A stretch of 64,000 nt of DNA from Sarea resinae (Eukaryota): assembly GCA_026026165.1 (NCBI GenBank), contig JAPEUD010000006.1, positions 124,001 through 188,000 on the forward strand, given 5' to 3'. Positions within the stretch are counted from its first letter, which is position 1, and each line of letters opens with the position of its first letter. The translations under genes were made by a program, and so were the position numbers. Under the pieces are notes generated by a model. That model made no database searches and was not told the DNA's origin. It saw only the letters and a list, made by a program, of their open reading frames with translations. Below are positions 43,113 through 51,397 of the stretch, piece after piece.

Positions 43113-44940
43113 TCCGCCCGGCTGTGAATCGCTCTTCTTGACAGACAGCGCTGGTGGAGATCGGCTCGTGCTTGATAAGCGTGCTCGCGGCGTTATGTAC
43201 TGCCTTGATGCAGGCCTCTCCACACCTCTCTATGTTCGGCCACCGCTTGACGATGAGAGTCTATTGCCGACCGGGGAGGTGGGGGGAAGGAGCGGGAGCG
43301 GTAATAAAGGAAGTCAAGACTTCACTCAGCCAGTCACGTCTCGATCTGTAGTACACTCTGGAAAGGGTGCTTGGAAATGGTGAATGGTGAATGCAGCGCT
43401 CGTGTCACTGATCGGTCTAGGGCTAGCTTTTCGAGTAATCGTAATCGTATTCACACGCGCAGATCACGTATGAGTGCGGTGAGATGGAGATGCAAAGGAT
43501 GGAAGACTTGGCGCCCTGTCCTGGTGATGATTGAATGGTCTGGATGGAATGACAACCCCAGAGGGGTACGAAGTAGTTGGTCGGCACGGGTACCGAGTAC
43601 AGGGGACGCATGTGGAAGGAGAGTGGCAGAAGTAAGTAGCCTGTACCAGTATTCATAAGGTACATACAACGTGCATCTACTACTACGGAGTACGTGGTAG
43701 AGTATCGTGCAGGTTAGGTCAGGTAGGTACGGCCGAGTATTCTGGTTGATTTGATCATTGCAGGTGACCCAACTACCTACTTCGAAGGTGGTACCTAATA
43801 TACAGGTAGGTATCTCTTAGGGAGAGACTATTAGCCCGACAGAAATGATTACGGGATGTCTCTTTCTGAAATTCGTTCATTTGCTCCATCTGCTCCATGT
43901 GCTCCATGAAGTACGAATCTGCCCTCCATAGATATCTAGGGTAATAATCGGTAGAATCTCGTGCAAATCTCGTACATGCTACCTAGCAAGCTAGGCAGGT
44001 CGCTTCTTTCTCTGTCTGCGACAAATGTGAAACTGGATGTGGTCCAAATCGGGTGTGGAAGAGTTCCAGCAGATACCTAATGGGAATGGCTTCGGGCCGG
44101 TTCAGCCCAACGATAACTATCCTGGGCTACGGCGGTTAGCTCTGGGGGATACTTGCGGTGAGGTATGAAGTATGGATGTGAGGGTACTTAGCTCTTTAAA
44201 CGGGACAGTGCTATCGCTATCTACCCGTGGGGGCAAAGATGAGTGAGGGATGCTATTGATGAGAGTGATGGATTATGCTCTGCTATGTAGGTAGAGTCAT
44301 ACTCCTACCACAACAAAATTGTCCACTTTACTTCGACTACTGTGCTAAACCGCACTCACCCGTCTGCCCATCTTGTAGGTTATCAATCTTGGCACCTTAC
44401 GGAGACGGGGGGAAGGAAGAAGCGAGGAAGCGAGGAAGCGACGACTTAGAATTCGATATTGGTAAACCGTGACAGCCCGGGTCAAGAATGGCACGGACAA
44501 AGAGATGGCGTTGAGAAGGGCAGAGGGGCGGAGGGGTAGAGGCTCCCTCATCCCTACCTACCTTAGGTTAGCTATCCTCTCAGAAGAGCCCTCTTTACTG
44601 TACTTACCTTACTTATCTTACTGTACGAATACATATAAAAGCTGATATTTTTCAGAAGGTAGTCCGGTACCTTAGGAAATGCCTGAGGTTGGCGGACTCG
44701 GCGCTAAAAGCCTGACCTTAACAGGTCACCTCAAGTCACTCGCCTTCGACTCACACCTCTCGTCCTCGCCCACCTCCAGCTCTCTTGTAAGTTTTCCCTA
44801 TTGATGTATTTCCTCATTATTCTGCAGTTCTAGATCTTTCAAGTCATCTGAGGGGAGCATCTCTCTCTGACTCAGGTATGCGTACTTTCATGATACGCAG
44901 TAGTATCATCAGCCAACAGCACGCAAGGTTTGCCTCCTAT

Positions 44941-45005
44941 CACCACCATCACCATCGCCATCGCCATCGCCATCGCCATCGCCATCACTATCACTATCAC
45001 CACCA
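44941..45005. repeat. (CATCGC/CACCAT/CACTAT)n hexamer repeat upstream of CDC24
   Basis: Read directly from sequence. Confidence 0.85.
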
Positions 45006-45890
45006 GCGCTACTTCATGCTAGCTGTGATCCGCCCTACATGAAGTCTCCTCTGACCCCCGCAGCGCTCGAGTCTCCGCAGCCTCCGCAGCCACGGATTAG
45101 TACTGTATGAGCATAGTGAATGTGAGAGAGGCACATGGGTAGCCGTAGTGTACTGTGTACTTGCAAAGACGGCGAGGCACACGGCTGTCGCCCGCGTGTC
45201 CGTGTATGTGCCGGTACCTTTGTAGATTGACTCCCGGCCTATGTGGAGCCCCTCGGCCCTGAGGTTGCCCCCTTGTTTCAAGAACTCTTCGCGAAGGATA
45301 CGACTACGCGACTTGGCCTTACTCATCCACCCTCACTACCACGCCGGTACAGTAGTGTACCTCACTTGGACCGACAACGCCCGTACTATCGTTGAACTTG
45401 AGACTTCGACCACCACCACCACCACCACCACCACCGCCATCACTACACCACCTGCCAGCCAGCCATCCAGCCTCTCTGTCTCGGTCCACTCGCAGTGGAA
45501 GTGAACTGATCGACTCTGCCGTCCTCTCATTGTTCTGCTTCTGCACGGCACTGTATCTCATCGCACTATACCCTCGATCTGCTGCATCGCTGCAGTCTCC
45601 TGCCTCTTGATTCTTCACCCGCCTATTCCTACTTTCATCCCACTCTCCTATGGGTCCCTCGTTCTTACCGCCAGCGACCGATCTTGCCCTTCCGCATCTA
45701 TCGTGAAAGGGATCTTATACCCCTCCCAGCGGATTATTGCCCCACCTGGTCGGGCATATCAGCCGCTCATCCTACGATCGATAGAGAGTGGCCCAGCATC
45801 CACCTCGGGCTCTTCTTGTACTTGGGCGGTCAACGCCACGTCTCCAGTATCGCGTTGAGATTGTAACTCCGACTGCGACTCACGAGAGAT

Positions 45891-48800
45891 ATGCTCGCCA
45901 TGGACCTGGTGCCGGGGCCTCTGACTCGCACCTTTACTGCACCGTCTGCAGTTCACAATCGAGGGCTGAACCCTCCGCCTCTGGTTTCGTCGCATAGTCA
46001 TGGCGGTCAATTTGAGGTGCATTCACAGTCGTTCTCTGGATCGGCACAGAATAAGTTTCCAGGTGCCGGTGGTCCGGGTGGAGATTTCCCAGTGAATGGT
46101 GGGCCCGTCATGGCCAGTGACAATATCATCAATCAGGTGGCCGACAAAGACAAATCTCTTTTCCAGATCTGTATCAACCTAAGGCAGAGGTTAAGCAAAG
46201 TACCCGGCTTCCAGCAGCACTTGAACGAGATCCTCGAAGAAGACAAGCGGGATGACACAACTGATCCCGTCACCTCTCTCTGGAAGTGTTTTCGGCGCGG
46301 ATATCCACTGTTGACGTTGGCAAATGCCTTGGATATACCGGAACTGCAGCAAGTCGATGAGTCTCGAGTCGCCGAAGCGAAAAGAGGCAAGGCTGCTACT
46401 TTCAAATTTCTTCAGGTCTGTCTGAAAGATATGAAATTCCCGCCGGGAGAGTGCTTTCTGATCACGGATCTCTACGGCGATGATACGACTGGTTTTGTCA
46501 AGGTAGGATCGTCCACGACCCATCTCATGCTGATCAGGAGGCTCACCTTTTGCTGCAGGTGACCAAAGTTGTCAACCGAGTTCTCAATATTATTCTGGGT
46601 GAAGATGTATCTGCCGAGTCGGACAACAAGGCAGTCGGAGGTGAGGCAAAGGAACGTACGCACATGGATTGGGTTGTGGATGAATTAGTCACGACCGAGC
46701 GAACGTACGTTCAACACCTCGAAGTTCTTCAACAATTCAAGAAGCAGGTCGAGGAAGGTGGTGTCACGACGGGAGACGCTATTCATGACATTTTTCTCAA
46801 TCTCAACGCGCTCCTTGACTTCCAACGCCGATTCCTCATTCGAGTCGAAACTATGAATGCGCTGCCAAAGGAGCAGCAGAACTGGGGTAGATTATTCACT
46901 ATGTATCAGGATTCGTTTCAGGTCTATGAGCCATACATTGCCAATCAAAAACGATGCGAGGAGACGGCCATGCGCGAATTCGACAAGTTAAGAGATGCTG
47001 GAGGTCCCCCGGAGCTGCGACAGATAGTGGATTCCCCAACTGTTCTCACTGGCTTTTTGTTGAAGCCTTTCCAGCGTCTCGCCAAATATCCATTACTTCT
47101 CAAGGTAAAGCCATGCGAGAGCATCTGTGCGCGCCTGATGCCCTCTCAGATCATATCTCTGACCATACATAGGAACTTCGGGACAAGTGCGATTTGGATA
47201 AGGAGCTGCAGGCGGACTTAACGGCCGGCATGGAAGCCGCGTCTGCTGTCTTGGAACGAACCAACGCGGCGATCGATCGTGAAGCACGTGCTGCGGCCGT
47301 ATCCGACCTCTCAGGTCGCGTGGAAGATTGGAAAGGTCACAAGATTGAGCAATTTGGAGATCTTTTGCTATATGGTACCTTCACGGTCCTAAAGGGTGAC
47401 GGCGCAAAGGACATTGAACGCGAGGTTCGTATTTTCTTCAATGGATTTGATCCTGATAGTCGCAACTTTCTTCGTAAAGGGTCTCGCCCAACTGCACAGA
47501 TGATGATTCCGGTCTCTTCTGTGTTCAAGGATGCTCTCAGCATCACCACACAGCGAGATAGGTCTGATACATCTTCACCGCAATCTCCTACCTTAAAGCT
47601 CGAGGCGAGAACAGAATACAGACCAAAGGCGTGGGTGAAAACCCGGCGAGGCTCGGCAGAGACATCTTCCAGTCCGCTCAGCCGATACTGCTCTCGTCCT
47701 CCTGCTTCTCCTACATCTTCCACTTCTCCTTCATCTCCTATATCTCTTGCAGCTCATGCAGCTCCTACACCCTCTATAACTCCTAAAAATCTGGTGACTG
47801 TCTCACCGCCATCTTCGCGCGGTCGGCTGCCAAGTCTTGAGAATTCTACCAGACAAGTCAGAAATATGGCTTCGGTCCCTATTTCTAATGAAGAGGGGCT
47901 ACCAAGCACCTCTGAAGAATCCTCCCTGTTCAAGAAAACCCTGAAAAAGTTTTCTAGTACTATTTCTCTTCGGGAAAGGTCTGCACAATCTGCGCAAGCA
48001 CGTTCCCCCAACACATTGTCAATGTCACGGAGTGCGGCCAAGTCAACAGACACCCCTCCAACTCCCTTCAGTCCTAGTGAAGACTTTGGTAGTGCTAGCT
48101 CTTCGGATCCTTCTTGGACCGAGAGTCTCATGTATGGCATTGCAAGTCGGAAGGAACGAGCATCGACTAAGTCGAGTGCTTTCACAGCCTCGACACAACT
48201 GCTCACTGGGGGATCTTGTGACAACAAACGTTTCCCCCTCAGCAAATTTCCGGGGGAAAGTCTTGAATTGATGCACATCACCGAGCGCGCTTTTGATTCT
48301 GAGACGTCTCGTGTAACGAAAGGTGTAGCTAACGAGTCGAGGATTAATTCTTCGATTTATCTACAGTACAAAGTCTACCTATTCGAACGCATCCTTCTCT
48401 GCTGCAAAGAGATGAACCCGAACAAACAGAAGAATAAGATCATGAGCTCGACTCGACCCTTAGTCGATAAGAGGGGGAAACCGAGGCTCCAGTTGAAGGG
48501 CAGGATCTTTATGCAAAATGTAACGGAAACTGTCTTCCTCCACAGACCTGGTAAGTCTCATTCTAGGCTTATTCGTGCCCATTGCATCCGTCTCCATCCA
48601 TCAGCACTAACGCATTCTCCGACAAGGCTCATACACGGTACAAATATACTGGAAAGGTGACCCAGGGGTCGAAAACTTTGTCATCAAGTTTGCCAACGAG
48701 GAAACTATGAGGAAATGGGCAAAGCAAGTTGATCTGCAGCGTCAGCTTTACAGTGATTCGGCAAAGGCCTCTGGAGCCAAGCATTCGGGCACTTCTGAAA

Positions 48801-50134
48801 CCGAATTTACTTACATGAGAAGCCAGAGTGCAAATATCCAGAACCCCTATCAAGAAGACGACCTCGACGAAGACGAGCCAGAGCCCCCAGTGAATGAGAA
48901 TGCCAATATGCCGTATGATATGGCAGGCTATTCATCAAATTCGGACTTTTCCGCCAGTAGAAACGCTTCCAGCACGAGTTTACGGTCCAGATCTACCACT
49001 GGAGACAGTGGTCCACCGATGGGACAAGGCCAATTTCGCGTGCCTCCTCCCAGATTTCCCATGAATACATTTGCGGGAGCGAATCTTAGCTTGCACACTC
49101 AGCTGCCCGGCAATGCTCCGTCGCCGGGTGAGCGCGGAGGGAACTCTTACTTCTCTCCCACGGTTGACTCTCCTTTATCAACGCGTACAAGTGGATCATC
49201 CGGCATGTATCCTTTCCCCCGACAGGCGACTCCAAGCAATGGTTGGCCAGGAGGAGATGAGCAAAATCGCTTCACTGCTCCTGCCATGGGACGTACAGTA
49301 TCACGCGAGGGTCAGCCTGGTGCCAACGGACGTTCAGCTCAGCGTCCATCGCTTCCTGCCATGACGGCATCACAAAATGGTCATCAGGTGTCTATGTCTC
49401 AGAGTCGACTAAGATCAGCGAGCAGCCCCGATATCCACAACCCAATGGGCCCAGGCGGTCGTCGTTTGGCAAATGGCCACGGACACCAACCCCCTGTGCC
49501 AGATGTGCCCGTGCCTCCTTTCCCTCCTCATATGGCCCATATGATGTACCCCATCAATCGAAGCCAGACCAATTCTCCTAGTAACGGCCAAAATGGTATC
49601 CCTATCCGTTCAGCTACACAATCTCCAAACCTTATGAGGGAGCAGCAGGCCCACCCACACGTCAATCACCACCCGGGGCTTCAATACTCTTATGATCAGC
49701 AATCACGCATGGACCCCCGCCAAGTGTCGCAGAACACCACGCCTATACCTCTTTCTGGCGCGGAACATCAGATGATGTCTCCACCCACTCTAGCAATGTC
49801 GAATGCCGAAGAACCCATTCCTCCTACGCAATTGAAAGTCAAAGTTTCATACGAAGATTGCTACGTCACTCTTGTTGTGGGAATGAGCATCAGCTACCAG
49901 TCTTTAGCTGATCGTATAGACGCCAAATTGTCCCGCTTTACAAAGTCATCTATTGGTCGGAATATGATCTCGTTACGTTACGTGGACGAGGATGGCGACT
50001 ATGTCACGATCCAGAGGGACGAGGATGTGCAGACTGCCTTTCAAGACTGGAGGGAACAGAACAAGTACAAACTCGTATCAGGGCAACTTGGAGAAATCCA
50101 CATGGTGTGCCAGCCCATTGTCGCCTCTGCCTAA
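45891..50134 (+). CDS. CDC24: Rho-family GEF Cdc24/Scd1 (CH-DH-PH-PB1); exons 45891-46502, 46559-47104, 47173-47424, 48367-48550, 48627-50134
   Basis: CH-like FLITDLYGDDTTGFVK; DH ELVTTERTYV..LLKPFQRLAKYPLLL; PH FGDLLLYG..ERE|YKVYLFERILLCCKE..LQLKGRIF; PB1 LRYVDEDGDYVTI. Confidence 0.95.
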
Positions 50135-51397
50135 TATTTTTTTTTTCCATTCTTCTCGAACAGAGCAACAATTTTCTCTTCTCACGTTCAATATACCACC
50201 AAAAAGCAATCCTTAGAGATTTGTTGGCTCTGGCGCATAAAGGATCGTTTCGGCACCATGTGTTCTCTCTTCGACTTTTGCATTGACATGGTATGGGACT
50301 TCTAGAAGATTTCAGTCGGTCTCGGCGCATGAAAGGTGTTGTGATCTGGATATTTCTTTACTTTTTCTTCATATCTTTTCGCTTCTCCTACAATCTTTCC
50401 GCAACCCATGGAGCACGGATCATCATTTGGCATTTGGTATGTCGGCGTCGGCGTGCAAGGAGATGGGTCACCATGATAGATCGATCTACTCTACATCATC
50501 CTTTGTCTCTCTATAGGCTTGTGAGCTTGACACGGCCGCACCAAAGCTTGTCAAAGCTTGTTTATATCTCGTCACGCCCTCTTTCCCTTTTTGCAATTGC
50601 TGCTCTCATCTGAACATTGCCTCCTATCGTTCAAAGCCTCGACATGAATTGATACTAAGAATGACGCAATCATGCTTGTACATACATAGACCAGCTTAGA
50701 CCTCTGTCTAAGGTAGTTGAATGTACTGTCCTCACTCAGGCTCACAAAGAGAACATGATTCCAGGATTGTTTGACTTCTGTCCGTCCTCTGAATTCTTCC
50801 TCGCAGGTCTGTATGTCTTTCTCGGTCAGGATAGAGATTCACGATACGGAGTCACCCTGAACGAGCGAATACAAAGATCACCCTACTATACTCTATACAG
50901 CCAAACCAAATAGACCCCTAACGGCCTTGATGACAGAAACACATGTAAACAGCGAGCATGTCTGAATGTGTCTGTAAGTAAGCTACTCGGCTTCCACAAC
51001 TATTGCCACCTTCTGCCGTCGTCGCTATTATTTTACCATCGCTCCTGCTGTCATTAGCTTATCAGTGTTGGTGTTGGTGTCTGTTAGCCTCGGGATGCAC
51101 AATTCTGTTCATCTCTTCTCTTCTCTTTTGTTCTGATTCTGTCAAGAAACCTGGATATCTCTTCTTTGGTGTTGGTCTGTCTGTTACCTTTCACGGCGGC
51201 GTTTTTCTGTTTTTCTGTTTTCCTGTTTCTCTTGCATTGTGCGTGTAGGCCTGTGTGTATGCGTATGTGTATGTGTCTTTGTGTATATGTTTATGTGCCT
51301 TTGAGTCTGTAAATTCCCTTACCTGTACATGCAACGAGGGAGGGAAAGCTTGATCGGATAGATAGATGAATACTCTGTAATACTACGTACTCTGGAG

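Follow-up and report, generated by a model that had tools for sequence, protein, structure and literature searches.

A candidate conserved exitron in the PH domain of the Cdc42 activator Cdc24 of Sarea resinae

The CDC24 gene of Sarea resinae contains, inside the PH domain of the Cdc42 GEF that it encodes, a translatable intron of 942 nt (47425..48366, + strand), which lies in phase 0 and reads as 314 codons with no stop. It was found in a 64,000-nt window, the whole stretch of DNA analyzed here, to which all coordinates refer. With a probability of roughly 0.6, we consider this segment to be a conserved exitron that sets a disordered insert into the loop between strands beta1 and beta2 of the PH domain. 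The open frame and the splice signals are conserved jointly across several leotiomyceta classes, a pattern that an exitron predicts and that neither a plain intron nor a plain exon does. To go by the sequence, it is also rather likely that both mRNA forms are made in Sarea and that the long form is translated.

The CDC24 gene and its deposited model

CDC24 occupies 45900..50134 (+) in this metagenome-assembled genome (MAG) of S. resinae, a member of the class Sareomycetes according to the taxonomy look-up. Its product contains, in this order, the Pfam domains CDC24 CH (PF06395, E-value 3e-27), RhoGEF/DH (PF00621, 1e-24), PH_10 (PF15411, 1e-19, with an additional match of 1e-7 at the PH C-terminus), and PB1 (PF00564, 4e-7), which is the four-domain order of Cdc24/Scd1-type Cdc42 GEFs. 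Moreover, Cdc24 of Xylona heveae shares 78% identity with it in the DH-PH region. Cdc24 is the central activator of Cdc42, and hence of polarized growth, in fungi.

The deposited exons are 45900-46502, 46559-47104, 47173-48550, and 48627-50134 (all +), and together they translate exactly to P0002 ("MAG: hypothetical protein M1819_005562 [Sarea resinae]", 1344 aa, 100% identity), the sole database protein that matches 47425-48366. The third exon includes the segment; without it, the product would have 1030 aa. Upstream of the segment, the coding part at 47173..47424 (+) covers the last portion of DH together with strand beta1 of the PH domain (...FGDLLLYGTFTVLKGDGAKDIERE). Downstream, the part at 48367..48550 (+) begins with strand beta2 (YKVYLFERILLCCKE...) and matches positions 22-80 of the PH_10 profile. 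The beta1/beta2 assignment in these flanks was taken from the AF2 model of an orthologue, P0131.

Splice signals, reading frame, and composition of the segment

The donor GTTCGT (47425..47430, +), which fits GTNNGT and directly follows GAG, would be read as codons V-R if retained. The branch-site consensus GCTAAC (48328..48333, +) would be read as A-N, and its branch A lies 34 nt before the acceptor. The 3' splice site CTACAG (48361..48366, +) closes with the codon CAG, or Q. These three signals had been proposed from the letters of the DNA, and re-reading placed each of them exactly there. Removal of the segment joins ...DIERE to YKVYLFERILLCCKE, giving the 27-31-residue spacing found in 104/163 orthologue models, in agreement with the expectation that splicing would restore the canonical PH sequence.

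The original prediction had also described the segment as free of stops, more than ten times the usual intron length, and very unlikely to be open in neutral DNA, and all of this was borne out. Its translation gives 314 residues with 0 stops, and the remaining three introns of the gene measure 56, 68, and 76 nt. The three frames of the + strand contain 0/10/23 stops and those of the - strand 9/2/29. When the segment was shuffled 20,000 times with its dinucleotides preserved, frame 0 came out stop-free only once, and the composition-based probability of an open frame 0 is 9e-7. Log-odds of codon usage, trained on the exons of Sarea CDC24 itself, were +0.03 in frame 0 and -0.25 and -0.38 in the other frames, with flanking non-coding DNA ranging from -0.14 to -0.44 across six frames; GC3 is lower in the insert (0.41) than in the exons (0.53). 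A constitutive spliceosomal intron free of any frame or stop constraint was considered as well, and the shuffle test and the DNA survey described below speak against it.

The predicted Ser/Pro/Thr-rich character was likewise found: S, T, and P account for 65, 29, and 28 of the 314 residues, and there are 13 SP/TP sites, none of which has the form S/T-P-x-K/R. Two antisense ORFs were observed within the segment (47337-47753, -, 138 aa; 47754-48356, -, 200 aa). Neither these nor the +2-frame ORF of the segment matched a Pfam family, and the antisense ORFs most probably arise as shadows of the Ser/Pro/Thr-rich frame on the sense strand.

A survey of the intron site in raw DNA

Since gene predictors are biased towards open frames, raw DNA was used for the survey of the site. 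Scanning of metagenome contigs yielded 80 Cdc24 loci, and the 74 with both anchors were counted (L010, L025, L038, L065, L071, and L073 were left out for a missing anchor). Wherever an intron was found in the surveyed loci, it is located directly after ER[EDQ] and directly before a Y codon; on this comparison of sequences, the site in the PH domain of Cdc24 is an old phase-0 intron position.

The site has no intron in 15/74 loci. Introns of 52-140 nt occur in 42/74 loci, among which nine have a length divisible by three (3n) and seven are both 3n and stop-free. Seven further loci (7/74) have introns of 213-400 nt, one of them 3n and none 3n and stop-free. The remaining 10/74 loci have introns of 726-909 nt, every one of them 3n and stop-free. 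These long introns comprise 8/8 distinct sequences from approximately five lineages and contain 7-22 stops in their other frames. Orthologous introns had been expected to be 3n and free of stops if the proposal was right; this expectation held for 10/10 introns longer than 500 nt, whereas stops are present in 7/7 of those of 213-400 nt. The contrast between the long introns, open in 10/10 cases, and the mid-length ones, open in 0/7, means that the long form is a distinct class whose frame is kept open, apart from both short and mid-length introns.

The mid-length introns (400 nt in L057-L059, ~260 nt in L061, 213 nt in L018, and 245 nt in L052/L053) carry 2-5 in-frame stops, and no similarity between them and the long inserts was found. 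The flanks of L057-L059 and L061 read GEG[AP]KEVERE, as in named Lecanoromycete models, and those of L018 and L052/L053 read ...SGKDGERQ, as in named Dothideomycete models. In addition, L009 (4009 nt) is intron-less at the site, while the closely similar L001-L008 have an intron of 53-56 nt; L009 is probably a transcript-derived contig that reflects normal splicing of the short intron.

The survey bears directly on the reading that the segment is a plain long intron whose frame is open by coincidence, or foreign coding DNA that was captured recently. The insert does appear isolated in databases: phmmer returned 0 matches among 1.84 billion representatives, no Pfam family was matched, and a word-based search brought back only the Sarea model itself among 8000 candidates. 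Nevertheless, an open frame would arise by chance with a probability of only ~1e-5 to 1e-6, the open 3n state recurs in 10/10 long loci and in many named lineages, and the N-terminal block of the insert is common to lineages (see below). Nor does an Rfam family or snoRNA explain the length of the segment, as the only match, to an archaeal snoRNA, scored 15 bits against a gathering score of 45 and is at chance level. Coincidence or capture is therefore close to refuted.

Splice signals are kept alongside the open frame

In the six lineages for which DNA is available, the donors read GTT CGT, GTC GGT, GTA TGT, and GTT CGT. Sarea and 9/10 long loci have the branch motif GCT RAC at codons -13/-12, which sets the branch A exactly 34 nt before the acceptor; in the remaining long locus, L049, TTAAC precedes the acceptor by 21 nt. 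All long segments with DNA end in CAG.

The same constraints can be followed in protein models. We collected 183 Cdc24-like proteins and found both site anchors in 163, which comprise 104 canonical models (27-31-residue spacing), 14 short read-through models, and 45 long read-through models. The last are ab initio predictions with a bias towards open frames, as opposed to the unbiased DNA survey with its approximately five lineages. Of these 45, which served as the unfiltered set for counting start residues, 43 (all but P0067 and P0122) have an insert whose first residue is V and whose second is R, C, G, or S; these four amino acids are the ones with NGT codons, so such a start fits a GTNNGT donor. 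The last residue is Q in 45/45. An open frame can write CTRAC only as [SPTA][ND] or as L-T, the third phase giving a stop. Scored at positions -13/-12, A[ND] occurred in 19 of the 47 unique inserts, with about eleven lineages represented, compared with a background [SPTA][ND] dipeptide frequency of 0.02; these 47 had been pre-filtered on V[RCGS], which introduces no bias at -13/-12 and makes them unusable for the start-residue count.

The insert peptides of Sarea and the other fungi are only ~25% identical, and yet the splice signals are kept at the nucleotide level. Sarea thus combines a 3n length without in-frame stop with canonical 5', branch, and 3' signals inside coding sequence, and its orthologues have the same signals. 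The original interpretation is thereby supported in part. For the exitron-like architecture that it proposed, the co-occurrence of signals and open 3n frame across lineages is strong support; splicing in Sarea itself is predicted, and the regulated retention and phosphorylation switch for Cdc42 signalling that it also put forward are hypothetical.

These signals also weigh on a second reading, in which the segment is a constitutive coding insert that is never spliced in Sarea and its splice-like signals are relics of the source intron. Such an insert would agree with the deposited model P0002, which treats the segment as an exon, with the RNA-library contig inside it, and with an open frame that has frame-specific codon usage. 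Relics, however, would decay, whereas the donor GTNNGT, the branch motif GCTRAC with its constant 34-nt distance, and the acceptor CAG persist despite the ~25% peptide identity; moreover, a Letharia-like ORF lacks exactly the insert (P0172, see below). We regard a constitutive insert as distinctly improbable. A zipper stem, in which the 5' part of the intron would pair with the branch region, was sought in five lineages and gave inconsistent results (z = +2.2, -0.1, -0.7, +1.5, and -3.8).

Position in the PH fold and constraint on the insert peptide

An AF2 model was computed from an alignment of 49 rows for P0131 of Blastenia crenularia, whose insert has 192 residues (mean pLDDT 58.5). In this model, the insert sits between PH beta1 (325-335) and beta2 (538-543). 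The pLDDT of the insert, which has two short helices of low confidence towards its ends, is less than 50, compared with 75-92 in the PH core. By alignment, the Sarea insert falls in the same loop. On the strength of this model, the insert is probably disordered and located in the surface loop beta1/beta2. In PH domains generally, this loop lines the lipid pocket.

Residues 1-18 of the insert (47425..47478, +) form a block common to lineages, VRIFFNGFDPDSRNFLRK in Sarea, for which the profile consensus is VcviFDslsPrlRalvre. Profiles were built from 46 other inserts, and the Sarea insert was ranked together with 2000 composition-matched shuffles of it. With the N-terminal block profile, Sarea ranked first of 2001, at the correct position (residues 1-18), and it ranked 13th of 2001 when the first two, splice-constrained residues were left out. 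With the whole-insert profile, it came 7th by full sequence and 17th by best domain among the 2001. Neither the FNGP block (114th of 2001) nor the C-terminal block (588th) reached significance in this ranking, and an apparent match of TASTQLL in Sarea to P0116 is therefore unsupported. The N-terminal block codons vary synonymously between lineages, and a C-terminal block is conserved within Teloschistales. The homology of the Sarea insert to the others is supported by position, ends, and N-terminal block; the rest of the insert has no significant similarity to them. Translation of the retained form would have indirect support from the conserved frame and the conserved N-terminal block.

A comparison of dN/dS between orthologous introns, which had been suggested as a check, gave ~0.6 for L048 versus L076, a value at which protein-level constraint is visible. 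Close pairs (L075/76/78/79/80 and L055/56) have only 0-8 differences each, too few to be informative.

Such data could also reflect a fail-safe frame, that is, an ordinary intron whose removal alone gives a functional protein, but which is so long that it is often left in; its open 3n frame would then yield a tolerated protein with a functionless insert instead of a truncated product. The fast evolution of the peptide (~25% identity between lineages, dN/dS ~0.6), the variation in insert length from 173 to 453 aa, the predominantly predicted disorder in a surface loop, and the lack of significant conservation in most internal blocks would all suit this alternative. It accounts poorly for an 18-residue N-terminal block that is conserved through synonymous codon changes, and for the conserved C-terminal block of Teloschistales. 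Furthermore, introns of 213-400 nt at the same site have stops in 7/7 loci, so length alone does not enforce an open frame. We consider the fail-safe explanation unlikely, albeit less so than a constitutive insert.

Taxonomic spread and inconsistent gene models

Among named protein models, the long open form was observed in Lecanoromycetes (~20 Teloschistales models, Psora, Letharia, and Dirinaria), Candelariomycetes (Pycnora), Geoglossomycetes (four models), Thelocarpales, Trizodia, and Sarea. Across these lineages, the insert of 173 to 453 aa corresponds to introns of 0.5-1.4 kb. It was also present, with 341 residues, in P0074, from one cluster labelled Elasticomyces elasticus (Dothideomycetes). 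P0094, from a second cluster with the same label, is canonical, and the label is therefore uncertain; the conflict suggests that one of the two is a paralogue or a mislabelled record, or that an assembly is mixed.

Within Teloschistales, canonical models come from Xanthoria parietina, X. calcicola, and Usnochroma, as opposed to the ~20 others with an insert. In P0122 and P0139, a predicted internal intron removes the insert only in part, a sign of a break in the local frame, of faulty assembly, or of a predictor artefact in those MAGs. Besides, 14 public models translate a short 3n stop-free intron, which lengthens them by ~10-30 residues, the first being V and the last Q (among them P0012, P0030, P0077, P0065, P0079, P0083, P0103, P0010, P0026, P0168, P0177, and P0180); they resemble artefacts of annotation or of ORF calling more than genuine inserts. 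With 45 long, 14 short, and 104 canonical models in circulation, orthology tables, domain calls, and expression estimates are inconsistent at this locus.

Transcript evidence for the two forms

The original prediction had called for RNA data on spliced versus retained forms. In the wood-decay metatranscriptome run X2, a contig of 502 nt lies wholly inside the Sarea segment (47852..48353, strand not assigned), with one mismatch (C>T at 48056). Coverage of the gene in X2 consists of only 47852-48353 and 49934-50140; neither boundary of the segment is bridged, no spliced joint was seen, and the uncovered exons and boundaries carry no information either way. The contig is a weak hint of retention in Sarea, as pre-mRNA or DNA carry-over could also give it. 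Runs X3 and X4, which represent other organisms, matched only in short conserved pieces; one loose end in X4 reads ...CTGCAG|TAC at the intron site.

Evidence on the spliced form comes from Parmeliaceae. P0172 is an uninterrupted ORF of 993 aa whose start lies 15 codons ahead of the annotated Met. With P0151 of Letharia lupina (1281 aa), it shares 98-99% identity over residues 1-447 and 741-1281, and exactly the insert, residues ~445-744 of P0151, is missing from it. P0174 has the same insert-less pattern at 91% identity. ORFs from the same sources that lie on genomic contigs are broken at introns and begin inside them, which, set against the uninterrupted P0172 and P0174, suggests that these two derive from spliced transcripts. 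The orthologous segment thus appears to be spliced in Parmeliaceae.

The annotation of the X. parietina mycobiont was trained with culture transcriptome data, according to a preprint (10.1101/2024.08.16.608140). The canonical X. parietina model used here, P0141, may come from that annotation.

Proposed mechanism

Under the exitron reading, spliced mRNA would give the canonical 1030-aa GEF, and unspliced mRNA would stay in frame and give a 1344-aa isoform with a 314-residue Ser/Thr/Pro-rich insert in the PH loop. The long protein might then alter membrane or partner binding, or gain regulatory sites. At 12-17 times the length of its neighbours in a short-intron fungus, the intron is plausibly spliced inefficiently; if so, retention should be substantial, which would in turn explain selection for an open frame.

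More tentatively, and with the odds rather against it, an ancient intron in the PH domain of Cdc24 may have been made optional coding sequence and a splice-controlled switch in several leotiomyceta classes (Lecanoromycetes, Geoglossomycetes, Sareomycetes, and others). A disordered, motif-bearing module in the lipid-binding loop could thereby tune the place or the timing of Cdc42 activation, which might differ, for instance, from one growth form to another or between the symbiotic and the free-living state.

Comparison with known systems

Exitrons (exonic introns) of plants and animals were reportedly defined by Marquez et al. 2015. The Sarea segment resembles them in lying inside coding sequence, in having canonical signals, a 3n length, and no stop, and in keeping the frame either way; the removed part is enriched in disorder in both cases. 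Unlike in plants and animals, the site in Sarea corresponds to an ordinary short intron in most Pezizomycotina (42/74 loci), and the Sarea exitron may, judging from this pattern, be an intron turned coding rather than an exon that gained splice sites. A further difference is that the Cdc24 case is conserved across classes. No fungal exitron, or exitron in Cdc24, of such a kind was found in the literature searched, with subscription papers lying outside it.

The closest comparison within the gene is with the short introns of other Pezizomycotina CDC24 genes, which have the same position, phase, GT...YAG ends, and CTRAC branch. They differ in length (52-140 nt), in being 3n in only 9/42 cases, in their chance-like stops, and in a donor that is more variable at +5/+6.

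In split PH domains, the known large loop inserts are constitutive and often hold folded domains. They share with Sarea the tolerance of the PH fold for a long insertion between strands, whereas the Sarea insert is proposed to be optional via splicing and is predicted to be disordered.

A fungal parallel is the PTC7 intron of Saccharomyces cerevisiae and relatives, which is translated in frame when retained, giving two proteins, and is conserved between species (PMC7491326). Like the Sarea segment, it is a fungal in-frame translatable intron with consensus splice sites and conservation between species, as that text describes (PMC7491326). The PTC7 intron is described there as encoding one transmembrane helix and changing localization (PMC7491326), whereas the Cdc24 insert is predicted to be disordered, ~170-450 residues long, and inside a PH domain. 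Furthermore, both PTC7 isoforms were shown in the same account (PMC7491326), while those of Sarea are deduced from sequence.

If the exitron reading is true, CDC24 would offer a rare case, in filamentous fungi, of alternative splicing that expands the proteome and is deeply conserved. The gene would also give a tangible way into the morphogenesis of lichen fungi, a group that is difficult to study.

Simple repeats were additionally observed upstream of CDC24. A His/Arg-rich run of the CAC/CAT/CGC type, one frame of which reads HHHHHRHRHRHRH, extends over ~44900-45040, and a (CAC)n run lies at ~45410-45440.
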